The notes under the pieces are model-generated. The model did not search any database, was not told where the DNA came from, and was given only the letters and a program-made list of their open reading frames with translations. Source: an uncultured Chloroflexia bacterium (GTDB lineage: Bacteria > Chloroflexota > Limnocylindria > Limnocylindrales > CSP1-4). From it: a stretch of 64,000 nucleotides of DNA. The translations under genes were made by a program, and so were the position numbers. Numbering within the stretch: position 1 is the first letter of the stretch; each line of letters starts with the position of its first letter. Below, piece after piece: positions 1,539 through 38,292 of the stretch. The stretch is taken from NCBI GenBank assembly GCA_963713975.1, contig OY970218.1, forward strand, positions 1,824,001 to 1,888,000. Reading direction: 5' to 3'.

Positions 1539-3161
1539 TCAGTGCGCGGCCGTCCGGCCGTACCGGGCGTCGAAGACCGGGCGCTCCGAGCGGATCTCGG
1601 GCAGGTGGTCGAAGTTGTAGGCGGGCGGCGGCGAGGATGTCGCCCACTCGAGCGTGTTGGCCTCCCACGGATCGGGGCCGGCGACCTTGCCGTTACGCAG
1701 CGAGATCAGCACGTTCCAGAAGAACGGCAGCATGGAGAACGCGATGACGAAGCCGCCGATCGTGGCGGCCAGATTGAGCTCGCTCCAGCCGGCCGTGCTG
1801 GCGTAGTCGGCGATGCGGCGCGGCATGCCTGCCAGGCCCAGCTGGTGCATCGGGAAGAAGGTGAGGTTGAACCCGATGAACATGAGCACGAACTGGAGCT
1901 TGCCGAGGCCCTCGTTGAGCATCCGGCCGGTCATCTTGGGGAACCAGTAGTAGATGCCAGCGAAGACCCCGAACACGGAGCCGCCGAACAGGACGTAGTG
2001 GAGATGCGCGACCACCCAGTAGGTGTCGTGGAGCGCGAAGTCCACCGGGACCGCCGCGGAGAACGCGCCGTTGAGGCCGCCGATCAGGAACAGCGTCAGG
2101 AAGCCCACCGCGTACAGCATCGGCGTAGCGAACGTCAGCTGGCCGCGCCACATCGTGGCGATCCAGTTGAACATCTTGACGCCCGTCGGCACCGCGATCA
2201 GGAACGTCATCAGGCTGAAGAACGGCAGGAACACCGCGCCGGTCGTGAACATGTGGTGGGCCCAGACGGAGAACCCGAGGGCGCCGATCGCCGCCGTCGC
2301 GAACACGAATGCCTTGTAGCCGAACAGAGGCTTGCGCGAGAAGACCGGCAGGATCTCGCTGATGATCCCCATCGCCGGCAGGATCATGATGTAGACCGCG
2401 GGATGCGAGTAGAACCAGAACACGTTCTGGTAGAGCACCGCGCTGCCGCCGTTGGCCGGGTCGAAGAAGTGCCCGCCGTAGTTGCGGTCGATGAACAGCA
2501 TGATCAGGGCACTGGTGAGGACCGGGGTCGCCATGAGGATGAGCACGCTCGTGACCAGCACGGTCCAGACCAGAATCGGCATCCGGAACAGCGTCATGCC
2601 CGGGGCGCGCATCTTGAAGATCGTGACCAGGAAGTTCACGGCGCCCAGGATGGAGCTCGTCCCGATGAGGGTCAGGCCCATGATCCAAAGGTCCGTGCCG
2701 GTGCCCGCGTATTGGGCGCCCGAGAGTGGTGGGTACTCCGTCCAGCCCGCGGCCGCCGCGCCACCCGAGGTCAGGAAGCCCGAGGCCATGAGGAGACCGC
2801 CGAGCGGCAGCAGCCAGAACGACAGGGCGTTGATCCGGGGGAACGCCATGTCCGGTGCCCCGATCTGGAGCGGCACGACGTAGTTCCCGAAGCCCGCAAG
2901 GATCGGGATGATGAACAGGAACAGCATGAACGAGGCGTGCATCGTGAACGCCTGGTTGTAGAACGCCTCGTCCACGGCCTGGAGCCCCGGCTGGGCGAGC
3001 TCCACGCGGACGAGGAGGGCGAGGAGGCCGCCGGCCACGAAGAACAGCATCGAGTTGATCAGGTACAGGATCCCGATCTTCTTGTGGTCCGTGGTCGTGA
3101 GCCACTCGTAGAGTCCGCTCCGGGCGGCGGGAGCGGCGGGGTTCAGGGTCGTTGTGGCCAT
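1539..3161 (-). CDS. ctaD: Cytochrome c oxidase subunit I (type A2, YSHPxVY)
   Basis: [33 protein letters not shown] motifs; start MATTTLNP after GGGAG RBS. Confidence 0.97.
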
Positions 3162-3172
3162 CCCGTGCTCCC

Positions 3173-4291
3173 TTACTGGACCGTCAGGGTGCCGGTCATG
3201 TTCGGATGGACCGTGCACACGAACGGGTAGGTGCCAGCCGCGAGGGCCGACACGCTGTAGTTGATCTCGGACACGCCGGTGATGATCTCGCCGGTGTAGA
3301 GCGGTGCACCCGACGCGTCCTTGATCTCCACGTTGTGGGGCACGCCGTCGTCATCGTTCTTGAAATGGATCACGAACGGCTGGTCGGCCGGTGCCTGGAG
3401 GGTGTCCGTCGAGAACTCGATGTTCAGGGCGCTGAGCTCGGCGACGGGACCCGCGGCCTCGCCGGATGGCAGGGGCGCCGGTGTGGCGTTCGCCTTGGCG
3501 ATCTTCGCGGCCATCCACGCATCGAAGTCCGCCTTCGGCCTGGCGTTGACCTCGAAGATCATCGAGCCGTGGAACGGGCCGCACAGCTCGGCGCACTGGC
3601 CGCGGTAGGTGCCGGGCTCCTCCACGGTGAAGTCGAAGGTGTTCTCCTTGCCCGGGATGACGTCCCGCTTGAACAGGAACTTGGGGACGTAGAAGGCGTG
3701 GATCACGTCGGGGCTGCGAAGCGAGATGTGGACGGGCTCCCCAACCGGTAGCACCAGCCCGCCGTCCTCGCCCACGGGCAGTGCCTGCGTGAACAGCACC
3801 TCCCCGTTGGCGTCGAGGTAGTCGAACTGCCATTGGAAGCGTGCCGCGACGGCCCGCACGTGCACGTCGCTCCTGGTCACAGCGTCGACGGTGTTGAGGG
3901 TCTGCCAGGACATGAAGAACAGGACCAGGACGATCACGGTGGGGATCGCCGTCCAGATGACCTCGACCAGGTTGTTGCCGTGGGTCTGCGGCGGCAGGGT
4001 GTCGTCCCCGGGCTTCCGGCGGAAGCGGAAGACCGAGTACACGATGAGCCCCTCGACCAGGACGAAGATGGCGACCGCGATGTAGAAGACGATGTTGTAC
4101 AGCTCTCGCGTGGCAACACCGCGGTCCGTGACGGGTGTGGAGCCGTCCACGGGGAAGAAGCTGTCCCACGCCTGCTGGGGCGTGACGCCCGCGGTCATGA
4201 GCACAGCGATCGTGATCGCGATGACCACGACGATGATCAGTCCGGCGACGATAGGGCCTGACCCCGTCCTGGACCGGGAGGGCATCGACAT
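3173..4291 (-). CDS. ctaC: Cytochrome c oxidase subunit II with extra C-terminal cupredoxin domain
   Basis: DVIHAF and CuA motif [12 protein letters not shown]; extra domain with HNV...CTVHPNM. Confidence 0.95.
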
Positions 4292-7068: not shown

Positions 7069-7242
7069 ATGGCGATCGCGAAGGACCCGGTCTGCGGCAT
7101 GGATGTCGACACGGAGACGTCGAAGCTGTCGCTGGAGCACGAGGGCGAGACGTACTGGTTCTGTGGCAAGGGATGCCTGCTCGAGTTCAAGGACGACCCC
7201 GACACGTACCTCGACCCCGCCTACGAACCCCAGGGGATGTGA
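7069..7242 (+). CDS. YHS domain protein (57 aa)
   Basis: MAIAKDPVCGMDVD...YWFCGKGCLLEFKDDPDTYL; GAGGAG RBS; below the ORF-track cutoff. Confidence 0.9.
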   Translation: MAIAKDPVCGMDVDTETSKLSLEHEGETYWFCGKGCLLEFKDDPDTYLDPAYEPQGM

Positions 7243-7544: not shown

Positions 7545-7973
7545 TCAGCGACCATCGACGGGGCGCCGACCTGCCACGGCGGGCAGGGCCAGCGCAAAGG
7601 TGGCGATCACCAGCACCGTCATCACCATCGGCAGCGTGTAGAGGATCGTCCTCACGTCAAATTCCGTGCCGCCCGTCGTCGGAAGGCCGAAGGTGAGAAC
7701 GAAGGCCCAGAAGCCTCCGACGAGCAGGGCCGGCGGCAGCGCGAGGAGGCGCCACCACCCGATCGGCTCGATGGCGTCGAGCAGGAGGCCAAAGCACGCC
7801 GCGCCCGCCAGACCAACAACGATCAAGGTCATCCCGATTCCGATCCAGGGTTGGGGCGCAAGATCCCAATCCCCGACAGCCAATGCGGATCCCGCGGCCA
7901 TCAGCAACCCGAGGCCAGTGGCCACGCCCGAGATCGCCAGCCCGGCCCATCCGATCCGACCCACCTGACGCAT
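7545..7973 (-). CDS. Hypothetical 4-TM membrane protein
   Basis: MRQVGRIGWAGLAISG...; four hydrophobic segments; AGGGAG RBS before ATG 7973. Confidence 0.6.
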   Translation of the reverse strand: MRQVGRIGWAGLAISGVATGLGLLMAAGSALAVGDWDLAPQPWIGIGMTLIVVGLAGAACFGLLLDAIEPIGWWRLLALPPALLVGGFWAFVLTFGLPTTGGTEFDVRTILYTLPMVMTVLVIATFALALPAVAGRRPVDGR

Positions 7974-8284
7974 CGACGTCTCCCTGTCTGCCATCGACCT
8001 CTTCGAGCGCTGGCGGTCGGACGCTCGATGTCCCTCGCTGGGTGCGATCAACAGTGTGGGGCAACGCCGCGTCAAGACCCACGATCGCGGCATGCCCGAC
8101 GCCACGAGGGATTCGCGCGGGCGACTGGCACGCCTCGCCTCACCTTGCTGCCGAACTGGCAATGAGATAAGTCGCGCGTAAGTGGCGTGCGCGAGACTCC
8201 GTCTCCCAGTCTTCGGCCGAGGGCACCCGGCAGGGTCGACGGCGATGGGATCGGAGTGCCCGCCCGGCGGGCCAGGAGGATCAG

Positions 8285-8386
8285 GTGCTCTCGCGTGCCC
8301 GGCGTGCCCTCGGGGTCGCCATCACCGTCACGGGCCCGACGCTGGCCGCATTCGCCCTTCTGGTCGTCGGAGCCAAGCGATGGTGA
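8285..8386 (+). CDS. Small hydrophobic peptide MLSRARRALGVAITVTGPTLAAFALLVVGAKRW (33 aa)
   Basis: AGGAGG RBS just before GTG; C-terminus closely matches the peptide at 14253-14348. Confidence 0.75.
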   Translation: MLSRARRALGVAITVTGPTLAAFALLVVGAKRW

Positions 8387-8543
8387 CGCCGGAGACGGCA
8401 GGCCCGTGCCCTCACGGCCGCCGCTGGTAGGAACGATCGGCGCAGACCCGGTGCGCCGCAGATCGAACCGAACGGGGATGCAGGCCCGCCCGGGATCGCA
8501 CTGATCGGGGCCCGATTCGGGCATCCTCCCGCATCATTGGCGC

Positions 8544-9113
8544 ATGCAGTGCAGGTCACGCTCGTCCTGGACGTCCCGCCTCCTGGTTGCCGTGTTCGCG
8601 GTGGCCGTGGCGTCCTGTGCGGAATCCGCGCCCGTCGCCACGCCGCCGATCGCCCCGGGCACGAGCGGCGCCCCGCGTGAGGTCAACATCGTGGCCCGCG
8701 ATTACACCTACGTTCCGCAGGCGGTCGACCTCGTGCCGGGCGAGACCGTGCTCCTGCATGTGATCAACGGCGGCCTCGCGATCCACGAGGCCGTGCTCGG
8801 CAGCATGGACGACCAGCTGGCGTGGGAGACGGCAGAGGCGGCGACCGCCGGCCATCCGCCCGGCGCGACACCGTTGGTGTCGGACCCCGAGGGCTTCGAC
8901 GGCGTCCGGATCGTTGTCGGGTCGGGCCAGCGGCTGGACGTGACCTGGACCGTGCCCGCGGACGCGGCGACGGCACCCGGCGGCTGGTTCGTGGGCTGCC
9001 ACATTCCCGGCCACTGGGCCAAGGGCATGGTCGTGCCGGTTCAATTCGTGGACGATGCCGGCGCGCCGCTCGCGGCCAACCGGCCCCTGCCGACGGGCTC
9101 ACCGGGCGGCTGA
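8544..9113 (+). CDS. Cupredoxin (type-1 copper) lipoprotein
   Basis: Lipobox VASC; IHE and GCHIPGHWAKGM ligand motif. Confidence 0.85.
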   Translation: MQCRSRSSWTSRLLVAVFAVAVASCAESAPVATPPIAPGTSGAPREVNIVARDYTYVPQAVDLVPGETVLLHVINGGLAIHEAVLGSMDDQLAWETAEAATAGHPPGATPLVSDPEGFDGVRIVVGSGQRLDVTWTVPADAATAPGGWFVGCHIPGHWAKGMVVPVQFVDDAGAPLAANRPLPTGSPGG

Positions 9114-9248
9114 CACCGGCCGGTGGTCACGCGGCGTCCGTGACGCACGCCCGCGTCGGGCTCGGGACGCCCGGTGGTAGGCTAGCCAGCGGTGCGTGGA
9201 TTGCTGCGCGCCCTCGCCGCGGACCAGATATCAGGAGACCCCAATACC

Positions 9249-9536
9249 GTGACGTACGTCATCGCCGAGCCTTGTGTCGACGTCATGGACACCGCATGCG
9301 TGTCCGTGTGCCCGGTGGATTGCATCCACTATGACGAAGGCGTCGATCGCAAGCTGTTCATCGACCCCAACGAGTGCATCGACTGCGGTGCCTGCGAGCC
9401 CGAGTGCCCGGTCAACGCCATCTTCCCGGAGGAGAGCCTGCCCCCGGAGTGGGCCGGCTACACCCCGATCGAGGCACTGTGGTTCACGGACAAGGCCGCG
9501 GCCCGGGTCGCGCTCGACGAGCTCAAGCCTGCCTGA
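9249..9536 (+). CDS. fdxA: Ferredoxin (7Fe/FdxA-type)
   Basis: MTYVIAEPCVDVMDTACVSVCPVDCI...CIDCGACEPECPV; AGGAG RBS. Confidence 0.92.
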   Translation: MTYVIAEPCVDVMDTACVSVCPVDCIHYDEGVDRKLFIDPNECIDCGACEPECPVNAIFPEESLPPEWAGYTPIEALWFTDKAAARVALDELKPA

Positions 9537-9596
9537 GGCCTCCGTACCCACCAGATCGCGGCACGGGCTGCGATCCAGGGGGACTCGATCGACGTC

Positions 9597-9626
9597 ACGG
9601 CCCCGCACTGTTGCGGGGCCGTTTCA
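9597..9626 (+). terminator. Hairpin terminator after the ferredoxin gene
   Basis: ACGGCCCCGCA-ctgt-TGCGGGGCCGT-TTC. Confidence 0.6.
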
Positions 9627-9679
9627 TGTCCGCGGATCCCCGAACGGACCGGGTGACCCGCGGCCCGTAGACTGGCCGG

Positions 9680-10540
9680 GTGCGTATCGTCTCCCTGCTG
9701 CCTGCCGCCACCGAGATCGTCCTTGCCCTGGGCCTGGGTGAGGAGCTGGCCGGCGTGACCCACCGCTGCGAGCTTCCCGCGAATGTCGGCGACCCGCCCG
9801 TGTTGACGCGCGCTGGCGGCGATGGAGGCGGCGATCGGCTCGATCGCGATGCACTCCGGCTGAGTGAGCCCGAGCTCGTGCTCGTGGGGCGCAGCGAGGA
9901 TGGCGTGATTGGTGGGCGGCAGGTCGAGGATGTGCTTGCGACGGGCGAGAGCCCGCCGTCCGTGCTCACGATCGCGCCGGTGTCGGTCGAGGGTGTCCTC
10001 AACGGGATCTCGGCCGTCGGCGCCATGACCGAGGCCGAGGACGAGGCGATGGGGGTCGTCGAGGGCCTGCGGGAACGGCTGCAGGCCCTGCAGGAGGTCG
10101 TCGTTGGACGTCGCGACCACGGCTTTCTGCCGCCACGCGTCGTGGTGCTCGAGTCCGTCGTCCCGCCGACTGCCGCGGGCCGCTGGATCCCCGACCAGGT
10201 CCGGCTCGCCGGTGGCTGGGAGCTGCTTGGCCGGGCCGGCGAGCGGTCGCTGCCCACCACGTGGGAGGCCGTCCGCGAGGTCGACCCCGAGGTCCTGGTG
10301 CTCGTGCCCGGGGGCCGGAACCTGCACGCCGCGCTCGAGGCATGGGAAGCGCTCCCGCGACCGGCCGCGTGGTCGGAGCTGCGTGCCGTGCGGGAGGATC
10401 GCGCGTTCGTCGTTGACGGCGGTGCATTCACCGGTCCCGGGCCACGGGTGATCGACGGCATCGAGGTCCTGGCCGAGCTCATCGATCCGGCGGCGTTCGA
10501 CGGGATGGCGCTGCCCGACAGCTGGGCCCGGGCCCGCTGA
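9680..10540 (+). CDS. BtuF/FepB-like periplasmic-binding-fold protein (no signal peptide)
   Basis: RIVSLLPAATEIVLALG, GVTHRC, FTGPGPRVIDGIEVLA. Confidence 0.8.
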   Translation: MRIVSLLPAATEIVLALGLGEELAGVTHRCELPANVGDPPVLTRAGGDGGGDRLDRDALRLSEPELVLVGRSEDGVIGGRQVEDVLATGESPPSVLTIAPVSVEGVLNGISAVGAMTEAEDEAMGVVEGLRERLQALQEVVVGRRDHGFLPPRVVVLESVVPPTAAGRWIPDQVRLAGGWELLGRAGERSLPTTWEAVREVDPEVLVLVPGGRNLHAALEAWEALPRPAAWSELRAVREDRAFVVDGGAFTGPGPRVIDGIEVLAELIDPAAFDGMALPDSWARAR

Positions 10541-10563
10541 TCCCGAAGGTCGATCAGGACACG

Positions 10564-11442
10564 ATGACCTTCCGCGCTCGCTTCGACTGCCTGTGGTGCG
10601 GTGACGCATGGACGACCAGTGGCCCCGAGGATCTCGAGGGGTGGGCCCGACTCTGCCCTGCGTGCCTGGGCCGGGCCGGACAGAACCCGTTCCTGCGGGG
10701 CAGGCTCAGGGCTGGCATGGCGGCTCGCGCGGCTCGCGCGGCGACGGCCGCGTCAGCGCCGCCCGAAGCCACGACCGCACCGGCGCTGCCACTCCCGGCC
10801 GCGGGTCTGGGCGACACGGTGCATACGCCCCCACCGGCCCCGGCGCCGGCCTTCCCGGACGACTGGTTCCTGCGTCGCGGGGCCTTCGAGCGAGGCTCAG
10901 TCCACGACGTCGCCTGGGCGGCCGAGCTGGACATGGTCACCCGCTGGCTCGACGGCCTGGGGCTGACGGGAGCGATCGTCGAGCCGGCGGCCGGGGTCGG
11001 CTTCTTCTCGCCGCTGCTGGCGGAGCGCGGGGACCTCCACGCGTTCGATGCCGACGGTGAGGCGCTCGACCGGGCCCGCGACCGGCTCGTCGCCCACCGG
11101 CTGCGTGCCCACCTGCATGTCGCGGATCCGTGGGCCATCCCGCCCGGCGGGGTCGCGCCGCTCAGCGCGGACGCCGTCGTGGCGGCGTTCCTGCTTGGCC
11201 GCGTCCGGGGTGCGGGCCTGGATCCCGCGGCCGCCTCACTCCATTCGCGCCTGCGGCCCGGGGGAAGGCTGGCCGTCATCGACCTCCGGCCCGATCCTGC
11301 AGGCGGCCCGCCCGCCGGGACCTCGTGGTCGTGGCATGCACCCGACCTGATCGAGGCCGCGCTGCGCCGTGCGGGCTTCCGCGACGTGGACATCACCACG
11401 ACCGGGCGCTTCTTCCTGACGGCCGTCGCGACCGCTCGCTGA
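10564..11442 (+). CDS. Class I SAM-dependent methyltransferase-like protein with N-terminal C4 zinc ribbon
   Basis: CLWC...CPAC; motif I VEPAAGVGFFS; LRPGGRLAVID. Confidence 0.7.
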   Translation: MTFRARFDCLWCGDAWTTSGPEDLEGWARLCPACLGRAGQNPFLRGRLRAGMAARAARAATAASAPPEATTAPALPLPAAGLGDTVHTPPPAPAPAFPDDWFLRRGAFERGSVHDVAWAAELDMVTRWLDGLGLTGAIVEPAAGVGFFSPLLAERGDLHAFDADGEALDRARDRLVAHRLRAHLHVADPWAIPPGGVAPLSADAVVAAFLLGRVRGAGLDPAAASLHSRLRPGGRLAVIDLRPDPAGGPPAGTSWSWHAPDLIEAALRRAGFRDVDITTTGRFFLTAVATAR

Positions 11443-11491
11443 GCACGCGGGCCGCGGGACCCGCAGATCCGCGGTGGTATCCTCCGCCGCG

Positions 11492-12376
11492 ATGTCGCCC
11501 CTCGCTGATCGGACCATTGCAACCGTCGGCTCCGGCGTCATGGCCGAGGCCATGATCGCAGGCCTGCTGCGTGGCAACCTCGTCGCGCCGGACCAGGTGG
11601 TTGCCAGCCATCCACGTGCCGACCGGCGCGCCGCGCTGGCCAGCACACACGGGATCCGCGTCGCTGCCTCCAACGTGGAGGCAGTCGAGCACGCCGACGT
11701 GATCATCCTGGCGGTGAAGCCCCAGATGCTGGCACGGGTGGGTCGCGAGATCGGGCCCAAGCTGCGCCGTGGCCAGCTGGTGCTGTCGGTGCTGGCGGGG
11801 CCCACGACCAGCGTGCTGGTGACGACGCTCGGCCATGACCAGGTCGTCCGTGCGATGCCCAACACCCCGGCCCGGATCGGCAGCGGCATGACCGTCTGGT
11901 ACGCGACGCCGGCCACGACCGGTGACCAGCGCTCCCAGGCGAGGACGCTGTTGGGGGCCCTCGGTGCAGAGCTCGAGGTCGAGGACGAGAAGTGGGTTGC
12001 GATGGCGACCGCCGTCTCGGGCACCGGCCCGGCGTACGTCTTCCTCGTCATGGAGGCACTGATCGACGCGGCGGTGCACCTCGGCTTCCCGCGTCACATC
12101 GCGCACGACCTCGTGATCGAGACGCTCGAGGGCAGCACCCGCTTCGCCAAGCAGTCGGGCGACCATCCGGCGGTGCTTCGCAACATGGTCACCTCGCCCG
12201 CCGGCACCAGCGCCGCCGCGATCCACGAGCTGGAGTCCGGCCGCCTCCGCACCGTCCTGTCCGAGGCGGTCTGGGCCGCGTTCCGGCGCACCGTGGAGTT
12301 GGGCGACCAGATGGAGGCCCAGCTCGCGACCGGCGACAAGCCGAAGAGGAAGCCAGGCGGCGAGACCGGCGCCTGA
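11492..12376 (+). CDS. proC: Pyrroline-5-carboxylate reductase
   Basis: GSGVMAEAM, LAVKPQ, RAMPNTP, SGTGPAY, VTSPAGTS. Confidence 0.95.
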   Translation: MSPLADRTIATVGSGVMAEAMIAGLLRGNLVAPDQVVASHPRADRRAALASTHGIRVAASNVEAVEHADVIILAVKPQMLARVGREIGPKLRRGQLVLSVLAGPTTSVLVTTLGHDQVVRAMPNTPARIGSGMTVWYATPATTGDQRSQARTLLGALGAELEVEDEKWVAMATAVSGTGPAYVFLVMEALIDAAVHLGFPRHIAHDLVIETLEGSTRFAKQSGDHPAVLRNMVTSPAGTSAAAIHELESGRLRTVLSEAVWAAFRRTVELGDQMEAQLATGDKPKRKPGGETGA

Positions 12377-12486
12377 AGTCAGGCGCAGCTGGTCTGGCAG
12401 TCGACCCGAAGGCCCGGACCGCATGGCCCGGAATCTACGGCCGAGCCTCCCTTCCGGCACGCGGCGCTGACGCTATCCTCGCCGGG

Positions 12487-13167
12487 ATGGATACCCACGC
12501 GGCCGACGCCGGCCGTCCCTCGGCGCCCGACAAGGAGGAGCTGCGACTCCTCGTCGACCAGCTCGCCCGCATGCGCGGCATGCTGTTCGGCTACTCGGAA
12601 CGGTTTTTCGAGCGGATCCGGACCTACCTGCTGCTGACGCTGGCGCTGCTCGTCATCGCCGGGGCCCAGGTCTTCCCGGCAGCCGTGATCGCGGTCCCGT
12701 TCCTGGTGCCGTTCGCGTTCCTGGAGACCGGGTACCTCTTCTACTACACGGTGTTCGCGCGTCGACACGCCGAGTACCTCGAGCGGACCATCAACGCCAG
12801 CATGGGGCGTGACGTGCTCGTGGCCCACCGGCTGGAGGCCGCGTACTTCTACCCGCCGGACGCGCCACGGATCGCCGCCATCTCCTTCGGCCGCCCGCTG
12901 GGGATGATGTCCGTGATGACCCTCGGCTACGCCGCCGGTGCGTTCCTGCTGTGGCTGGCGGGCATGCTGGGCGTCATCGACCTGGTGGATGGCGGCGGGG
13001 TCGGCCCGCCGATCGTTGCCAGCTTCCTCGTGCCGGCCGCGCTGCTGTGGACCCTGGCCATCGCCGGGCACCTCGTCTACGCGTCCCTGAGCCGTCGCGA
13101 CGAAGCCCCGCTCATCGCGGAGCTGGACGCCTCCTATGGCGGCCAGCCCGCCGACCCCGCCGACTGA
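12487..13167 (+). CDS. Hypothetical membrane protein
   Basis: MDTHAADAG...; several TM segments; typical codon usage. Confidence 0.7.
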   Translation: MDTHAADAGRPSAPDKEELRLLVDQLARMRGMLFGYSERFFERIRTYLLLTLALLVIAGAQVFPAAVIAVPFLVPFAFLETGYLFYYTVFARRHAEYLERTINASMGRDVLVAHRLEAAYFYPPDAPRIAAISFGRPLGMMSVMTLGYAAGAFLLWLAGMLGVIDLVDGGGVGPPIVASFLVPAALLWTLAIAGHLVYASLSRRDEAPLIAELDASYGGQPADPAD

Positions 13168-13182
13168 CCCCCCGAGGGACCA

Positions 13183-14154
13183 ATGCCCGCCAAGTCCACC
13201 GTAAGCGATGCTGCCGAGCGTGCGATGCGCTCGACGCTCCTGACCCTGTCACATCGCAAGTCGCTGGGGAGGCTGGCCACGCAGGTGCCAATCACCCGGC
13301 CGATGGTTCGCCGCTTTATCTGCGGCGAGACCCTCGACGAGGCACTGCCGGCGATCCGTCGCCTGTACGAGTTGGGCATGGGCACCACGGTGGACGTCCT
13401 GGGCGAATCCGTGACGGCCGAGGCCGACGCCCGCGCCGCCGCGGCCCGCTACGTCGCCGTCCTGGACGCCCTCGCTGCAACGGACCTCGACAGGAACGTG
13501 TCGCTCAAGCCCACCCAGATGGGCCTGGCGATCGACCCGGGGCTCGCCAGAGAGACCATCGGCTCGATCGTGGCCAAGGCCGTCGAGGTCGGGGCGTTCG
13601 TGCGCATCGACATGGAGGACCACACGGCCACGGATCGCACCATCGACCTGTGGCGTGACGTGCGGCCGGCCGACACCAGCGGTGCCGACGTGGGCCTCGT
13701 GATCCAGTCGGCGTTGCGTCGCAGCGACCGGGACGTCGAGGCGATCATCGAGGCCGGTGGCCGCGTGCGCCTGTGCAAGGGTGCGTACAAGGAGCCGGCA
13801 TCGGTCGCCTACCAGGAGAAGGCCGAGGTCGACGAGGCGTACGAGCGCCAGATGCTGCGGCTCATGCGCGCCGGCAGCTACCCGGCGCTGGCGACCCATG
13901 ACGTGCGCCTGATCAAGCGCGCCGTCGAGGTCGCGACAGCCGAGGGGATCGCCCGCGACGCCTTCGAGTTCCAGATGCTCTACGGGGTCCGTCGCGACAT
14001 CCAGGAGCAGCTGGCAGGTGCGGGCTGGCGGGTCCGCACCTACGTGCCGTTCGGCTCGCAGTGGTATCCGTACTTCATGCGCCGCCTGGCCGAGCGGCCC
14101 GCCAACGTCTCGTTCCTGCTCCGGAACCTGTGGCGGGAGCGCGGCCGGGGCTGA
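13183..14154 (+). CDS. Monofunctional proline dehydrogenase
   Basis: RFICGET, SLKPTQMG, RIDME, RLCKGAY, ATHD, EFQMLYG, YFMRRLAERPAN. Confidence 0.95.
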   Translation: MPAKSTVSDAAERAMRSTLLTLSHRKSLGRLATQVPITRPMVRRFICGETLDEALPAIRRLYELGMGTTVDVLGESVTAEADARAAAARYVAVLDALAATDLDRNVSLKPTQMGLAIDPGLARETIGSIVAKAVEVGAFVRIDMEDHTATDRTIDLWRDVRPADTSGADVGLVIQSALRRSDRDVEAIIEAGGRVRLCKGAYKEPASVAYQEKAEVDEAYERQMLRLMRAGSYPALATHDVRLIKRAVEVATAEGIARDAFEFQMLYGVRRDIQEQLAGAGWRVRTYVPFGSQWYPYFMRRLAERPANVSFLLRNLWRERGRG

Positions 14155-14194
14155 GGCGGCGGATCAGCGCGTCCGGGGCCTCCCGGGAATCCAA

Positions 14195-14222
14195 GAGCCG
14201 CCGGGTGGGCCCCCGGCGGCTC
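14195..14222. terminator. Hairpin between convergent genes
   Basis: GAGCCGCCGGG-tgggcc-CCCGGCGGCTC. Confidence 0.55.
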
Positions 14223-14252
14223 AGGCCTCGGCCGTGTGCGAGGTCGATCTGA

Positions 14253-14348
14253 CTACCAGCGCTTGGCCCCGCCGATGACGAACGCGAACGCGGCCATCGT
14301 GCCGAGGAACATGATCGCGCGCTGCGCGGCGTACTTCATGGTCGTCAT
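14253..14348 (-). CDS. Small hydrophobic peptide MTTMKYAAQRAIMFLGTMAAFAFVIGGAKRW (31 aa)
   Basis: AAGGA RBS; GC-rich third codon positions; paralogous C-terminus to 8285-8386; downstream hairpin. Confidence 0.8.
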   Translation of the reverse strand: MTTMKYAAQRAIMFLGTMAAFAFVIGGAKRW

Positions 14349-14515
14349 GTCCGGGTTCCTTCACCTTGCGTTCCGGGGTCGGCATGGGCGCGCCCCTGAG
14401 TCGGAACCCGACGGTAGTCCGCCTTAAGGCGCTCTGGGCATGGCCCCAAGGTACTGGTGCACCCCGGACCCTCGTGGCAGTTGCCACGATGCACCGCCGC
14501 CCTTGGTGCGGCGGT

Positions 14516-15910
14516 TCAGGGCTCCCGGGCCGGGATCCTGAACGAGAACGCACTGCCCTCGCCGGGCATGGACCGGACCTCCAGCTCGCCGCCGTGGGCG
14601 CGCACGATCTGACGAGCGATCGGAAGGCCCAGCCCCGTGCCCCGGGGACCATCCGGCAGCGTGTCCGAAGACTGACGGAACGGCTCGAAGATCCGCTCCA
14701 GGTCTGATGCAGGGATGCCCCGCCCGGTGTCCGCCACGACGACCTGGACGGCGCCGGGGTCCGCTGCCGGGTCCGCGCCGGTGTCCACGGTCACGGTGAC
14801 GGTCCCGCCAGGGGCGAACTTGACCGCGTTGGAGACGAGGTTGACGACCACCTGGACGAGGCGGTCGGCGTCCCCGACCACCTCCGGCAGGCCGTCCTCG
14901 ATGTGGATCGCGAGCGTGACGCCGCTCACCTCGAACAGTGCGGAGGTCGTGGCGAGCGCCCGCCTGACGACCTCCTCGAGCCGGAGCGCGGCCATCCGCC
15001 ATTCGAGACGGCCGGCCTCGATCTTGGCGAGGTCGAGCAGATCGTTGATCAGTCCCGTGAGCCGCTCGCCCTCCTCCACGATGATCGCGAGGTTGTCGCC
15101 CACCTGTCGGGTCGCCCGGTCGACCTTCGGGTCGTCGCGTGGCACGACCGGGATGATCACCTCGTCCAGCCGTCGCCGGTTGAGCTTCGCGAACCCGACC
15201 ACCGAGGTTAGCGGCGTCCGGAGCTCGTGGGAGACGTTGGCGAGGAAGCGGCTCTTGGCCTCGTTGGCCAGCTCGGCGGCCGCCCTCGCCCCCTGGGCCT
15301 CCGTCATCGCCGCCAGGAGGTCCTTCGTGCGCTCGGCGACCCGGGCCTCAAGGGCCCGGTTCTGGGCCTCGAGCTCCACCTTGAGCCGAGCCGATTCCAG
15401 CGCCCCCGCGAGCAGCGATCCCACGGTGTACAGCAACGGGCCGTCGGCGGGCTCCAGGGCCCGGCCATCGCGCGTGTCGTTGACGATGAGGACGCCCACC
15501 ACCCGGCCCTGGGTCACCATCGGCGTGCCCACGAAGGCAGACGAGCCCAGGACGGCCGCGAGACGCCGGTTTGCCTCCCCTCCCTCGCCAGCCGCATCGT
15601 GGAACAGCAGGGGTCCGTCCGCCCGGGCGAGCCGCGCCGGCGCTGCCTGTTCGTCACCCAGGTCAACGACGAGGTCCGCGACCAGCAGCCCCAGGCCCGG
15701 CGGCCCTCCGGCCACTCGACAGCCCCAGATCACGCCCGCCGCCGGATCGACCAGTGCGATGACGCCCCGCTCGAACCCCAGGCCCGCGACGATCTCCGCC
15801 AGGCCCTGCTCTATGAGGCGATCAGGGTCGTGGGTGGAGGCCAGGACGATTCCGATCGCGTTGATGCCCGACAGCTCCGCGAGGCGGCGACGCAGGCGCT
15901 CCTCCAGCAC
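14516..15910 (-). CDS. GAF-domain sensor histidine kinase (soluble)
   Basis: H-box ANVSHELRTPL, N-box NLVSNAVKF, G boxes DTGRGI and GTGLGL; start may be upstream (CTG at 15985). Confidence 0.93.
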   Translation of the reverse strand: MLEERLRRRLAELSGINAIGIVLASTHDPDRLIEQGLAEIVAGLGFERGVIALVDPAAGVIWGCRVAGGPPGLGLLVADLVVDLGDEQAAPARLARADGPLLFHDAAGEGGEANRRLAAVLGSSAFVGTPMVTQGRVVGVLIVNDTRDGRALEPADGPLLYTVGSLLAGALESARLKVELEAQNRALEARVAERTKDLLAAMTEAQGARAAAELANEAKSRFLANVSHELRTPLTSVVGFAKLNRRRLDEVIIPVVPRDDPKVDRATRQVGDNLAIIVEEGERLTGLINDLLDLAKIEAGRLEWRMAALRLEEVVRRALATTSALFEVSGVTLAIHIEDGLPEVVGDADRLVQVVVNLVSNAVKFAPGGTVTVTVDTGADPAADPGAVQVVVADTGRGIPASDLERIFEPFRQSSDTLPDGPRGTGLGLPIARQIVRAHGGELEVRSMPGEGSAFSFRIPAREP

Positions 15911-15981
15911 CGCCGATCGCCCCGCCCGGGCCTCGCGTCGGTCGGTGCGCGCCCCCGCGTCGGACCGGTCCGGCCGGAAGC

Positions 15982-16788
15982 TCAGGGCTCCGCCCCGTCG
16001 CCGGCACCGGCCGCGCTCCCGCCGATGCCCATCGCCCTGCCGATCGCCGGGCCGGCGAGCGCGGCGATCGCCGTCACGACCTTCAGGTCCGCGGAGCGGA
16101 ATGGCCCGCCGGTGGCGGTGGCGCCCACGACGCCCAACGTGATCCCGCCGGCCCGCAGCGGCGCCACCACGATGCTCCCGCCGGCACGCTCGGCGTCCGT
16201 CGCCCGCGCGTCCGTGGCGGCGTCCTCGACCAGCTCCGCGCCACCGGTGGCCGCCGCGGTGCCCACGATGCCCACGCCCACGCGGGCGGTTGCCAGCGGT
16301 CCACCCTCGCCGTCCGAGCCGGCCGCCGCGCGCAGTGTCTCGCCGTCGGCCAGGAGCAGGAACCCGCGCGCGTCGTGGGGGAGGCGCGAGAGCTCGGCGA
16401 CCGCGGTCTGGACCACAGGATCCACGGTGTCGGACCCGCCGATCGTCGCGGCGAGGTCATAGATCAGGGACAGCTCCCGGTAGCGTTCGAGGGCCTCGTT
16501 GGCCAGCGCCCGCTTGTCGCGCTCTCGGGCGGCCGCGTATGCCAGCACGGCAGCGACCCCGCGCGCAGGACGACCACCCTCAACCCAGCCCAGCACCTCG
16601 CCGTCCACGGTGACGTCCTGCCGGACGTCGGGATCCGTGGGTCCCGTACCGGCCGGGCCGCCCCGTTCGAGGATCACGCCACCGGTCGCGTCGCGGATCG
16701 TCACGGCCGCGTCGATCCCGGCGAGCAGGGCCGACACCATCGGCCCAACGTGACGGTGGCGGACGATGAGCCTGCGCAGCTCGCTCAT
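15982..16788 (-). CDS. GAF-domain protein without output domain
   Basis: EALERYRELSLIYDL coiled coil; GIVG..A.TG, SIVVAPLRAGGITLGVV, FRSADLKVV. Confidence 0.8.
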   Translation of the reverse strand: MSELRRLIVRHRHVGPMVSALLAGIDAAVTIRDATGGVILERGGPAGTGPTDPDVRQDVTVDGEVLGWVEGGRPARGVAAVLAYAAARERDKRALANEALERYRELSLIYDLAATIGGSDTVDPVVQTAVAELSRLPHDARGFLLLADGETLRAAAGSDGEGGPLATARVGVGIVGTAAATGGAELVEDAATDARATDAERAGGSIVVAPLRAGGITLGVVGATATGGPFRSADLKVVTAIAALAGPAIGRAMGIGGSAAGAGDGAEP

Positions 16789-17165
16789 GCCGACCCCAGC
16801 ACGCGCCTGGCGAGCGCCAGCAGGGCATCGGGGTCGAAGGGCTTGGTCAGGTAGTCGTCGGCGCCTGCGGCGAGCCCCTCCTCCCGGTCGTGGGCCTGGC
16901 CTTTGGCCGTCAGGAGGACGATGTGCGTGCGTGCGGTCCCGGGGTCGGCCCGGACCGCCCGGCACACTTCGAGGCCGTTGCGCCCCGGCATCATCAGGTC
17001 CAGGAACACCAGGTCCGGGTGCTGGGCGCGGATTGCGGTGAGCGCCTCGTCACCGTTCGCGGCCGTGTACAGCTCGACGCCCTCGTCGAGCAGCTCCTCG
17101 AGCGTCTGCTCGATCAGCAGCCGGATGTGCTGCTCGTCGTCCACGATCAGGATCGTCCGCCCCAT
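16785..17165 (-). CDS. Single-domain response regulator (CheY-like)
   Basis: ILIVDDE, FLDLMMPG, LLTAKG, KPFD. Confidence 0.95.
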   Translation of the reverse strand: MGRTILIVDDEQHIRLLIEQTLEELLDEGVELYTAANGDEALTAIRAQHPDLVFLDLMMPGRNGLEVCRAVRADPGTARTHIVLLTAKGQAHDREEGLAAGADDYLTKPFDPDALLALARRVLGSA

Positions 17166-17254
17166 TGAGCCTCCCTCGTCGCCGCGTGGCCGCCCACGAT
17201 GCCCGAAGGGTGGCGTGCGCGCAAGGCAGCGACCCGGTCGGGCATCATCTGCGC

Positions 17255-18061
17255 ATGACGACCGCACCCGTTCCCCCCGCCACGTCCGCTCCTCCCCGCG
17301 CCAGCCTCCGCCGCCGCGTGCTCGCGGGTGAGCCCACGATCGGCCTGTTCGTGAACCTCGGTTCCATCGTGTCCGCGGAGATCGTGGCCCGGGCCGGGTA
17401 CGACTGGGCCCTGGTCGATCTCGAGCACGGTATGGCCACTCAGGCCGAGCTCCTGGCGCAGCTGGTCGCAATCCAGGCGACGCCGACGGCAGCGGTCGTG
17501 CGCGTGGTCTCGAGCGAGCGGATGCGCGTGGGCCGGATCCTCGACCTGGGTGCCGACGGGCTGATGATCCCGCGCCTGGAGACGGCTGCCGACATGCGCG
17601 AGACGGTGTCCTGGATGCGCTATCCGCCGGCGGGGATCCGCGGCGTGGCGGCAGGGACGCGCGGTGCGGGGTATGCGACCGTGGCCCATCCGGACATCGC
17701 CTCCATCAGCGAGCGGGTGCTGGGCGTGTTCCAGGTGGAGTCGAGGGCGGCGGTGGCCGCAGCCGATGAGCTGGCCGCCATCGACGGCGTGGACGTGCTG
17801 TTCGTCGGCCCTGCAGACCTCAGCCACGAGATGGGCATCCCCGGCGAGTTCGGGCACCCTGCCTTCATCCAGGTGCTGGACCACGTGGCGGCCGTCGCGA
17901 AGGCCCACGGCAAGGCGGCGGGGATGCTGGTCCGCGACGCATCCGAGGTACCTGCCTATCACGCCCGTGGCTTCGGATTCCTCGGGATCGGATCCGACTC
18001 CGGGCTGGTCATGAGCGGCGCCCGCAGCCAGCTCGCCCTGGCCCGCACGGCCCTCCGCTGA
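17255..18061 (+). CDS. HpcH/HpaI aldolase family protein
   Basis: VDLEHG, RYPPAGIRG, QVES, FVGPADLS. Confidence 0.9.
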   Translation: MTTAPVPPATSAPPRASLRRRVLAGEPTIGLFVNLGSIVSAEIVARAGYDWALVDLEHGMATQAELLAQLVAIQATPTAAVVRVVSSERMRVGRILDLGADGLMIPRLETAADMRETVSWMRYPPAGIRGVAAGTRGAGYATVAHPDIASISERVLGVFQVESRAAVAAADELAAIDGVDVLFVGPADLSHEMGIPGEFGHPAFIQVLDHVAAVAKAHGKAAGMLVRDASEVPAYHARGFGFLGIGSDSGLVMSGARSQLALARTALR

Positions 18062-35566: not shown

Positions 35567-35606
35567 TTGCCTGGTGGCGCCGTGCTGGTATACTCCCCCC
35601 TAGTAT
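35567..35606 (+). promoter_or_regulatory. copA promoter with CsoR/RcnR-type operator
   Basis: TTGCCT..TATACT promoter overlapped by ATACT-CCCCCC-T-AGTAT. Confidence 0.65.
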
Positions 35607-38292
35607 GACGTCCCTACCCGATGCGCCCCAACCCATCGAGATCATCCTGCCCATCGAGGGCATGACCTGCGCGTCGTGCGTCAACCGCATCGAGCGCTTC
35701 CTCAAGAAGACGCCGGGGGTCGCGGACGCCGCGGTGAACCTGGCGACCGAGAAGGCGACGATCACGGTCGATCCGGCGCTCGCCGGTCGCGACGAGCTGG
35801 TGAAGGCCGTGGAGTCCGCCGGCTACGAGGTCAAGGCGGAGGCCGTCCCTGTCGAGGGTGCCGTCGCAGCCTCCCTCGGGGACGAGATCACGGCCGAGGA
35901 CATCGAGCGCGAGCGAGCCCAGCGCCAGACGCTCCTCCAGGCCCTGGTCGCCATCGGGGCGTCGCTGCTGTTCATGGTCCTGATGTTCACGCCCCAGACC
36001 CTGGTGGCGATGACGGACCTCAACAAGCTGATCCTGTGGCCCGCGACCTTCATCCAGTTCTGGGCGGGCGGCCGCTTCTACCGGGCGGCATGGCGGGCCG
36101 GTCGCCATGGCGGTGCCACGATGGACACCCTGGTCGCCGTCGGCACGAGCGCCGCCTGGGGCTACTCCGTGTTCGTGACGATGTGGCCAGGGGTGATCCA
36201 CCAGGCCGGCCTGCACCCGGAGACGTACTTCGACTCGGCGTCGATCATCCTGGGGCTGATCCTGCTGGGCAAGTGGCTGGAGACGCGTGCCAAGGGCCGT
36301 ACGACCGGGGCGATCCGGCGGCTCGTCGGGCTGCAGGCGACGACCGCGCGCCGGATCCGCGACGGGGTGGACGAGGACGTGGAGCTCGCCCTGGTCATGG
36401 TGGGCGACCTGCTCCGCGTGCGCCCCGGCGACAAGGTCCCGGTCGACGGCGTGGTCGTCGATGGCATGTCCGCCGTGGACGAGTCGATGCTCACCGGCGA
36501 GCCGATCCCTGCCACGAAGTCCACGGGCGACGAGGTGATCGGCGCCACCCTCAACACGACCGGCTCGTTCGTGATGCGGGCGACGCGCGTCGGCCGGGAC
36601 ACGGCTCTCGCGCGGATCGTGGAGCTGGTCCAGCGGGCCCAGGGGTCGAAGGCCCCGATCCAGCGCCTCGCGGACCAGATCAGCGCCGTGTTCGTGCCGG
36701 TCGTCCTCATCATCGCGGCCGCGACATTCGCCATCTGGTTCGTGTTCGGGCCGGAGCCCCGCTTCACCCTGGCGCTCACGGCCTTCATCGGCGTCGTGAT
36801 CATCGCCTGCCCGTGCGCGATGGGCCTGGCCACCCCGACGGCCATCATGGTCGGGACGGGCAAGGGGGCCGAGGCCGGGATCCTGGTCCGTGGCGGCGAG
36901 GCGCTCGAGGCCGCGGGCCGGATCGACACGGTCGTGCTCGACAAGACCGGCACCCTCACCCTCGGGCGGCCCGCAGTCACGGCGATCATCGCGGCGGCGG
37001 GCTTCGACGAGGCACGGGTCCTGGACATGGCTGCCGCGCTGGAGACCGGCTCGGAGCATCCGCTGGGCGAGGCGATCGTGCGCAAGGCGCGCGAGGCGGA
37101 GCTCGGCTTCGGCAAGGTCGACGGGTTCGAGGCGGTCGTGGGCCGCGGCGTGCGTGGGTCCATCGACGGCGCAGACATCATCGTGGGTAGCCGCCGCATG
37201 CTGGAGGAGCTAGGCGTTGACCTCGCCGCGCTCCTTGACCCCGCGGACGGGATCGCTGCCGACGGTGGGACCGTGGTCTTCGTCGCGATTGACGGCCTGG
37301 TGGCCGGCATGGTCGCCATCACGGACCCGGTCAAGGCCGAATCCGCGGAGGCAGTGCGTGACCTGCGGGCATCGGGCCTCGATGTCTGGCTGCTGACCGG
37401 CGACGCGCGCGCGACCGCCGAGGCCGTCGCCCGCCAGGTCGGCATCGCGCTTGACCATGTCATCGCCGAGGTCCTGCCGGGCGACAAGGACGCCACCGTC
37501 GAGCGCCTCCAGGCCGAGGGACATCGGGTGGCCATGGTGGGCGACGGCATCAACGACGCGCCGGCGCTCGCCCGGGCGGACCTGGGGGTCGCGATCGGAA
37601 CCGGCGCGGACGTTGCGATCGAGGCGTCCGACATCACGCTCGTGGGCGGTGACCCGCGGCTCGTCGGCTCGGCCATCGCGCTGTCCCAGGCCACGATCCG
37701 GGTGATCCGGCAGAACCTGTTCTGGGCGTTCGCCTACAACGTGCTCCTGATTCCTATCGCGATGGGGGTGCTGTACCCGGCATTCGGCGTCACGATCAAT
37801 CCCGCCCTGGCCGCGGCAGCGATGGCGCTGTCCTCGGTGAGCGTGGTCACCAACTCGCTCCGGCTGCGCGGCGTCGATGTCCGACCGGGCCATGTCACCC
37901 AGCTCCGGCGCGGTCCCTTGGGGTTCGCCAGGGACGCGACGTTCCTGCTGATCATCGCCGTTATCGGCCTGGCGCTGGCCGGCGGCGTGCTGGCGGCGGA
38001 CCGGGCCGTGAACTCGAGCCTTCCCAAGGTCGTGGTTGTGGCGGGCGCCGATGGCACCAGCCCGGCCGACCTGACGGTTCGTGCGGGCGAGTGGACGCTC
38101 GTCCAGTTCGTCAACGAGGACAGCGTGGTGCGGGAGTGGATGATCGACGGGGTGCCGAACCTGGACGTTGTGGCCCGGCCCGGGCAGACCGCGGACCTGC
38201 GCTTCGTCCTGGACAGGCCCGGGACCTTCATGATCATGAGCGGCCCTGCCGGAGAGGGCGAGATGGCCGGTACCCTGGTCGTCACGCCATGA
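35605..38292 (+). CDS. copA: Cu(I)-translocating P1B ATPase with C-terminal cupredoxin-like extension
   Basis: [32 protein letters not shown] and MALSS. Confidence 0.95.

Follow-up and report, generated by a model that had tools for sequence, protein, structure and literature searches.

What are two very short open reading frames (ORFs) with the same five-residue ending doing in the genome of an uncultured bacterium of the Chloroflexota? The question is raised by a stretch of 64,000 nucleotides (nt) from contig OY970218.1 of assembly GCA_963713975.1, an uncultured Chloroflexia bacterium. I will refer to the whole of this stretch as the window, and all coordinates are given in its own numbering. 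A first-pass annotation had called attention to the two micro-ORFs, named here pep1 and pep2, whose translations both end in GAKRW, and had suggested that they belong to a paralogous family, either of pheromone or quorum precursors or of small membrane regulators of sensor proteins. I will argue that they are almost certainly real, conserved genes, members of a paralogous family of peptides of about 30 to 34 residues that, by comparison of genomes, belongs to Limnocylindria-type Chloroflexota. What the peptides do can be answered more tentatively. The reading I favor, at a probability of roughly 0.45, is that they act as single-pass membrane micro-proteins, accessory or modulatory subunits and not secreted signals.

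Two micro-ORFs and their relatives

The first of the pair, pep1, lies on the forward strand at positions 8285 to 8386 and comprises 33 codons, from a GTG start (read as methionine) to a TGA stop. Its translation begins with a basic N-terminus, continues with about 21 hydrophobic residues, and finishes with the GAKRW tail. The second, pep2, lies on the reverse strand at positions 14253 to 14348 and comprises 31 codons, with an ATG start, a TAG stop and the same tail. Both translate as the first-pass annotation had described them, and the Shine-Dalgarno (SD) sequence it had claimed for each can be seen as a purine-rich run: at positions 8274 to 8280 (forward strand), 4 nt 5' of the GTG, in the case of pep1, and at positions 14356 to 14362 (reverse strand), where GAAGGAA stands 7 nt 5' of the ATG, in the case of pep2.

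The G+C content of the window is 71%, so open frames alone mean little. The shared ending is less easily come by. A six-frame scan of the window found four ORF tails of the form [KR][KR]W-stop, and GAKRW occurs only in pep1 and pep2. A degenerate DNA pattern representing A-F-A-x4-G-[AG]-K-R-W-stop matched twice in the window, as compared to 0 of 100 dinucleotide-preserving shuffles. When the two peptides were compared by BLASTP, 10 of the 15 C-terminal residues were identical (E = 6e-07, as a single comparison). Local alignment of the two DNA regions confined the likeness to the C-terminal coding part, with a score of 40, as against a mean of 22.7 and a maximum of 32 in shuffled controls.

The same DNA pattern was used to scan 185,579 species genomes, with 6-kb flanks retained, and 30 loci were found (designated L plus a number). 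At 25 of these, the match is the end of an intact ORF of 31 or 32 codons that begins with ATG and occupies a syntenic pep2 slot. All 25 come from Chloroflexota metagenome-assembled genomes, labeled as uncultured Chloroflexia, Candidatus Limnocylindrales, Chloroflexota/Chloroflexi and, in one instance, Anaerolineaceae (class and order being taken from NCBI taxonomy). The N-terminal half of the orthologues, which lies outside the search pattern, is alignable too, and a run of the GGA/GAGG type, as judged by eye, is present in the 25 nt upstream of every one of the 25. A pattern search of relatives, which the first-pass annotation had put forward as a check on its family, thus turned up conservation together with translation signals, and so the outcome that it had named as damaging, the lack of both, did not arise. 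The other five loci (L002, L013, L014, L027 and L028, from Proteobacteria, Actinomycetota and Bdellovibrionales) do not have the pep2 architecture and were treated as chance matches.

The pep2 frame bears a moderate but clear coding signature. Over 26 sequences, the mean pairwise amino acid identity is 0.709 and the BLOSUM62 score 3.62 per site, as compared to 0.53–0.64 and 2.1–3.0 in the other five frames over the same DNA. None of the 26 has an internal stop, and the stop codon itself is TAG in 18 and TAA in 8. Variability is greatest at third codon positions (0.233), lower at first positions (0.143) and lowest at second positions (0.087). The pooled ratio of nonsynonymous to synonymous variation (pN/pS) is 0.49, or 0.63 for codons 1 to 19, which fall outside the search pattern. 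The sequences are related by descent, so that the numbers of sequences given here should not be taken as numbers of independent events.

Among 1.84 billion representative proteins, a family profile, built from 26 pep2-type and 5 pep1-type sequences, picked out 33 clusters at E ≤ 1e-3 (7 of them at E ≤ 1e-10), pep1-type members among them. The clusters consist of peptides of 30 to 34 residues, in some cases lengthened by an upstream start called in error, along with one truncated entry and one of 115 residues that resembles a chimera. A-K-R-W stands at the C-terminus, or no more than two residues from it, in 31 of the 32 untruncated matches. In the alignment of the 31 family sequences, G-A-K-R-W is invariant throughout, and the only other invariant columns are two alanines within the helix described below; the C-terminal end of the family can be written, nearly without variation, as [DENG]-[GSTN]-A-K-R-W. 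The claim that pep1 and pep2 are paralogues with a basic N-terminus, a hydrophobic core and a common end is borne out.

Whether these ORFs are unannotated, as had also been claimed, depends on what is meant. No curated family covers them: Pfam and NCBIfam gave no family for either peptide at E ≤ 10, PADLOC and PHROGs gave no family match, and a search of the PDB with the family profile found no chain at E ≤ 10. Individual members have nonetheless been called as genes, since a 31-residue "hypothetical protein" identical to the L010 peptide is listed by both NCBI and JGI. The ESM Atlas yielded no named cluster, only unnamed clusters of 31- to 32-residue hypothetical proteins at 0.90–0.91. A word-indexed library, queried with a 60-residue gene call that contains the peptide, returned six entries of near length, nine shorter and one longer, all of them unnamed or "hypothetical protein". 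The longer entry (164 residues) was considered as a possible fusion and rejected; it is a frameshifted read-through from the 3' end of a kinase gene through the leader into pep2. In the part of the literature that was accessible, GAKRW appears in designed antimicrobial peptides only, and within the same part there was no account of small proteins of Limnocylindria. By these searches, the AKRW-tailed peptides are a previously undescribed and apparently lineage-restricted family.

The pep2 locus

The ORF is not the only conserved element at the pep2 locus. In DNA alignments, the roughly 140 nt 5' of the ATG are conserved as strongly as the ORF itself, and this non-coding block (positions 14349 to 14498, reverse strand) has 22 invariant columns in the 26-sequence alignments. 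It holds a 12-bp palindrome, GGTACNNGTACC, which occurs once per locus in 24 of the 25 related loci. The copy in the window is not intact, having suffered a 2-nt insertion, and no further copy of the palindrome core was found in the window or in the related loci. The block also contains a stretch ending in CAT, a variable spacer of fixed length, a hairpin that precedes the SD, and a TANNNT hexamer about 60 nt before the ATG.

Does this block act as DNA or as RNA? The hairpin before the SD is more stable than its dinucleotide shuffles (mean z score −1.85, with 19 of 24 distinct sequences below −1), and the first hairpin of the block shows a similar tendency (mean z −1.46; 14 of 22 below −1). 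The spacer is no better than shuffles (mean z −0.09). Folded whole, the leaders of 10 sequences gave z scores from −3.2 to +0.7, two of them below −2. In the minimum-energy fold of the window's leader, the SD region is paired with a complementary stretch upstream. On an unfitted alignment, 75.3% of the cells in two leader helices can pair, as compared to 43–51% when the helices are slid out of place. The covariation score of the leader is 0.135, as compared to 0.122 in shuffles, and 90 of 500 shuffles attain 0.135. RNAalifold, applied to a MAFFT alignment of the block, proposed eight pairs, none with a compensatory change. Rfam 15 has no gathering-level match anywhere in the window, and nothing relevant appeared at positions 14100 to 14600 (E ≤ 5) or in five related loci (E ≤ 1). 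The block may be either an operator/promoter region or a structured leader.

About 30 nt 3' of the pep2 stop codon (positions 14188 to 14222, reverse strand) there is a GC-rich stem-loop with a short U-containing tail. The stem is 11 bp long, and the 86-nt stretch that includes it has a z score of −2.47. The stem-loop is conserved in 26 of 26 aligned sequences, in one of which (L018) both sides of the stem have changed in a manner that keeps the pairing. It is probably an intrinsic terminator, an assignment that draws on folding and conservation. A consensus promoter and terminator scan of positions 7900 to 14700, both strands, made no call; it missed the stem-loop because the T run is too short.

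The arrangement around pep2 is syntenic across the 25 loci, as determined by tblastn with the proteins of the window. An EamA transporter and an HpcH-type aldolase are encoded on one side, and on the other a converging proline dehydrogenase, ProC, a methyltransferase, a binding protein, a ferredoxin and the cupredoxin gene considered below. Directly upstream of pep2 in the window is an operon that encodes a receiver (REC) protein and a GAF histidine kinase (positions 14516 to 17471, reverse strand). The first-pass annotation had placed pep2 just downstream of this operon on the same strand, and this is correct: 167 nt separate it from the ORF of the GAF histidine kinase.

The operon adjoins pep2 in 15 of the 25 related loci as well as in the window. 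It is absent from the remaining 10 (L003, L004, L009, L015, L016, L020, L021, L022, L026 and L029), all of which still keep pep2, the upstream block and the terminator. In the two operon-less loci that were examined, L004 and L015, it is a divergent gene for a D-Ser-dehydratase-like protein that abuts the pep2 upstream region. Proline dehydrogenase, for its part, is absent from six loci that keep pep2. pep2 is therefore tied to neither neighbor. The operon is a presence/absence polymorphism, and its kinase is linked to pep2 only incidentally. That kinase consists of GAF, HisKA and HATPase domains and no others, and no membrane segment was found in it: the maximum 19-residue Kyte-Doolittle mean is 1.48 and falls within the GAF domain.

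pep1, ORF2 and a copper-themed neighborhood

Orthologues of pep1 are found at the equivalent place in six related loci: L001 (where the gene is cut by the end of the locus), L005, L012, L015, L016 and L023. They end in GAKRW, with or without one further residue after it, and they carry a GGAGG-type run, similar to that of pep1, in the 25 nt upstream. In the window, a second micro-ORF of 16 codons, ORF2 (positions 8380 to 8430, forward strand), begins with an ATG inside the last codons of pep1 and ends C-x-H-G-R-R-W-stop. ORF2 follows pep1 in 7 of 7 pep1 loci, that is, in the window and the six just named. The orthologues have 16, 17 or 18 codons with the frame kept, and the consensus end is C-x-H-[GA]-R-R-W-stop; one of them uses AGG for a conserved arginine, for which the others use CGC. 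With seven sequences, it is suggestive that ORF2 codes for a peptide, and that peptide may be a Cys/His peptide whose translation is coupled to that of pep1.

Downstream of the pair is a gene for a lipoprotein of 189 residues with a cupredoxin-type copper loop (positions 8544 to 9113, forward strand). Its translation has a signal sequence ending in Cys and a C-x4-H-x4-M loop. It matches NCBIfam CopI with E = 2e-11 and 44 bits, under the cut-off of 280, and there is a weak match to Pfam Cu-oxidase_2. pep1, ORF2 and the cupredoxin gene are possibly co-transcribed. The pair does not always keep this company, since in L016, which has no cupredoxin gene, it precedes the ferredoxin gene. Conversely, pep1 is missing 5' of the cupredoxin gene in eight loci where this region is visible (L004, L009, L017, L018, L021, L024, L026 and L029; L025 is masked upstream of that gene).

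Two observations on the DNA 5' of the cupredoxin gene may be recorded here. Loci that do not have pep1 (L004, L009, L017, L021, L024, L026, L029 and others) have a conserved block of about 60 nt there, together with a conserved motif directly 5' of the start codon of the cupredoxin gene. Rfam has no match for this block in the loci tested. In the window itself, a Glutamine-II riboswitch was considered at positions 8431 to 8478 (forward strand) and rejected, as it scored 17.5 bits against a gathering threshold of 33 (E = 0.099) and was not reproduced in five related loci.

Other genes in the region continue the copper theme. A YHS-domain, metal-binding protein of 57 residues (positions 7069 to 7242, forward strand; Pfam E = 3.4e-15) falls below the 80-residue cutoff of the ORF list. 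The divergent upstream neighbor of pep1 encodes a hypothetical four-helix membrane protein of 139 residues with no family match (positions 7545 to 7964, reverse strand). CtaG and the cytochrome oxidase subunits are farther off; by Pfam scan, the latter include COX2 with an additional C-terminal cupredoxin-like domain (positions 3173 to 4291, reverse strand), COX1 (1539 to 3218) and COX3 (851 to 1528). Elsewhere in the window (positions 35605 to 38292, forward strand) there is a P-type ATPase in which an HMA domain at the N-terminus is combined with a Cupredoxin_1 domain at the C-terminus, an unusual fusion. The neighborhood of pep1 is copper-themed, and the inferred link to pep1 is one of position.

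What the peptides may be

The case for membrane micro-proteins begins with the peptides themselves. AlphaFold2, given the family alignment, predicts pep2 to be a single helix over residues 2 to 29, with a mean pLDDT (the predicted local distance difference test) of 87.5. The best 15-residue Kyte-Doolittle window is at least 1.89 in 64 of 64 members. Over 19 residues, the best mean has a family median of 1.72, reaches at least 1.6 in 38 of the 64, and is 2.01 in pep1. Over the 64 members, the N-terminal side is the more positive of the two, with a net charge of +2.5 as compared to +1.4 for the C-terminal side. A complex prediction with two copies of pep2 scored 0.08 (the mark being 0.42), which bears neither way.

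I would therefore picture each member, with due caution, as a short basic N-terminus, most likely inside, followed by one Gly/Ala-rich hydrophobic alpha-helix and the A-K-R-W end. Small residues would make up the helix face that packs onto a membrane protein partner, and Lys-Arg-Trp, at the membrane interface, would provide a fixed contact or anchor. pep2 would be expressed as a unit of its own, from conserved control block through SD and ORF to terminator, and pep1 as the first cistron of a translationally coupled pair with ORF2, usually ahead of the cupredoxin lipoprotein. Insertion into the membrane, topology, a partner and a link to copper make up the mechanistic part of this picture, and these I infer from composition and conservation.

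Several points weigh against it. The translation and the membrane location of both peptides are predictions from sequence. In pep2, only about 15 hydrophobic residues separate Arg from Asp/Asn/Gly, a short run, and 26 of the 64 members fall under the usual hydropathy threshold of 1.6. Positive charge at both ends makes the topology uncertain. A pN/pS of 0.49 (0.63 over codons 1 to 19) amounts to only moderate constraint on pep2. Because the search pattern required the C-terminal motif, the constancy of the tail in the 25 orthologues is partly circular, and the profile search, less biased than the pattern, is not free of the motif's influence either. No membrane complex is encoded in an operon with pep2 that would point to a partner, and the neighbors of pep2 are metabolic enzymes that give no functional hint. 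As for pep1, its absence from eight cupredoxin loci and the arrangement in L016 make the copper link a loose one.

How do other explanations fare? The main rival, unlikely but deserving of the most attention, is that the peptides are like type I toxins, damaging to membranes and with translation held in check by a structured 5' leader, an antisense RNA, or both. Their size, the single hydrophobic helix with a charged and aromatic tail, the intergenic unit that stands alone between a long, conserved upstream block and a strong terminator, the existence of two paralogues and the restriction to a narrow set of taxa would all suit such a toxin, as would the hairpin before the SD, which surpasses its shuffles, and the pairing of the SD region in the fold of the window's leader. 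However, no antisense promoter or terminator was evident in the consensus scan of positions 7900 to 14700, PADLOC recognized nothing, and the leader as a whole gains nothing clear over shuffles and covaries weakly. Moreover, an A-K-R-W kept strictly across paralogues and 33 clusters suggests a specific contact over a generic activity on membranes, and the locus keeps to a single syntenic chromosomal slot among housekeeping genes in 25 genomes. A different explanation would touch pep1 only: pep1 and ORF2 might be upstream ORFs that regulate the cupredoxin or ferredoxin gene, the peptides themselves having no function. The pair does lie in the 5' region of a gene that follows in the same orientation, ORF2 starts before pep1 stops, and the two are together in 7 of 7 loci, even where the gene downstream is a different one (L016). 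I consider this quite unlikely all the same, since pep1 shares its protein motif with pep2, which has no downstream gene on its strand, since the frame of ORF2 has been kept through changes of length and an alternative Arg codon, as if the peptide were under selection, and since several cupredoxin genes do without the pair.

The two functions put forward by the first-pass annotation fare worse. An exported signal or pheromone precursor would use its N-terminal part as an export signal and release a peptide ending in GAKRW, and the n-region/h-region layout, the Ala-x-Ala that pep2 has immediately ahead of its last nine residues, and a size like that of short hydrophobic pheromone precursors are compatible with this. 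The would-be mature part is, however, the most conserved part across paralogues and genomes, Pfam scans of the approximately 65 ORFs of the window found no receptor (in particular, no RRNPP-type (TPR) receptor or regulator), peptide exporter, processing protease or modifying enzyme, and the adjacent kinase is cytoplasmic and dispensable; a pheromone is thus very unlikely. The idea of membrane regulators of the adjacent REC-GAF-histidine-kinase system owes its appeal to a kinase ORF of like orientation that ends 167 nt ahead of pep2 and to the 15 of 25 loci in which the operon adjoins pep2. It is largely refuted by the 10 loci that keep pep2, its upstream block and its terminator with no operon, and the kinase has no hydrophobic segment and pep1 no kinase neighbor, so that little is left of it. 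Could the ORFs then be no genes at all, but chance openings in DNA rich in G+C, or pieces of a non-coding RNA? At 71% G+C, long frames often stay open, all 26 sequences are open over pep2 in two of the three reverse frames as well, and the flanks of pep2 are conserved as DNA. Against these stand the absence of the pattern from all 100 shuffles, the peptide frame as clearly the best conserved, the codon-position pattern with fixed start and stop and SD-like runs, the likeness of the paralogues in protein and not in flanking DNA, and the lack of any Rfam match, all of which leave this explanation barely credible.

Beyond the membrane micro-protein reading there is a bolder extension of it, three proposals that I would regard, taken jointly, as a long shot. 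The A-K-R-W or R-R-W tail could be a dedicated recognition tag common to pep2, pep1 and ORF2; pep1 and ORF2 could form a new micro-operon linked to copper, whose products work on the outer face of the membrane together with the cupredoxin lipoprotein; and pep2 could be under an undescribed regulatory element, whether the palindrome as operator or a structured leader. If all this were true, these peptides would be more than one further kind of hydrophobic micro-protein: they would form a small-protein system with a logic of targeting or recognition all its own.

Annotation systematically overlooks small membrane proteins, and beyond a few model bacteria next to nothing is known of them. Here is a whole family, with an invariant five-residue tail and a conserved control region, from an uncultured class of soil and freshwater Chloroflexota. 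It provides concrete targets for tagging, for determination of topology, for a search for partners, and for a look at the copper response of pep1, ORF2 and the cupredoxin gene. Of the leads to follow, the most promising are the Cys/His micro-ORF coupled to pep1 and the control block conserved upstream of pep2. The family also offers a caution: the kinase next to pep2 is an insertion/deletion polymorphism, and so function cannot be read from a single neighboring operon.

Which known systems does the family resemble? The SHP, Phr and ComS types are short hydrophobic pheromone precursors of Gram-positive bacteria, and like pep1 and pep2 they have a basic N-terminus, a hydrophobic body and a size that falls below the usual gene-calling cut-offs. 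In pherotype-specific signals, the mature C-terminal part is variable rather than invariant. The C-terminal part of the AKRW-tailed peptides, by contrast, is invariant and not strain-specific, and their neighbors are unlike those of RRNPP/SHP precursors, which are encoded beside a cytoplasmic TPR-type receptor or regulator; they consist of the GAF kinase, proline dehydrogenase, ProC, cupredoxin, ferredoxin and the D-Ser-dehydratase-like gene. Regulators like MgrB and SafA differ in another way, since the kinase at hand is not membrane-embedded and is linked to pep2 in only 15 of 25 loci. pep1 and ORF2 resemble coupled micro-ORF pairs or upstream ORFs in their start-stop overlap and in the larger gene that comes next, but the pep1 family also has a stand-alone form (pep2), and the peptide sequence of ORF2 looks constrained.

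Type I toxins are small hydrophobic peptides with long 5' leaders, and the points in common are more numerous: fewer than 60 residues, a hydrophobic helix with a charged tail, a stand-alone locus, a long conserved upstream region, a strong terminator and more than one copy per genome. The AKRW-tailed peptides differ from them in having no evident antisense RNA, a conserved syntenic slot, a strict C-terminal motif and a leader whose structure is weakly supported.

There remain the single-pass small membrane proteins that serve bacteria as accessory subunits or modulators, such as KdpF, CydX, MgtS and AcrZ. No sequence relationship connects them with pep1 and pep2 (Pfam, NCBIfam and the PDB came up empty), and I know of no counterpart among small membrane proteins to the invariant A-K-R-W tail. 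Unlike the KdpF/CydX kind, pep2 is monocistronic, lies outside any transporter or oxidase operon and converges on genes of proline metabolism, and pep1 precedes a lipoprotein gene and not one for a transporter or oxidase. What is shared is the kind of protein: about 30 to 50 residues, one hydrophobic helix, no enzymatic domain and a readiness to be missed by annotation. The conserved small-residue face of the AKRW-tailed peptides suggests, furthermore, a packing of helix against helix, as in accessory small membrane proteins.

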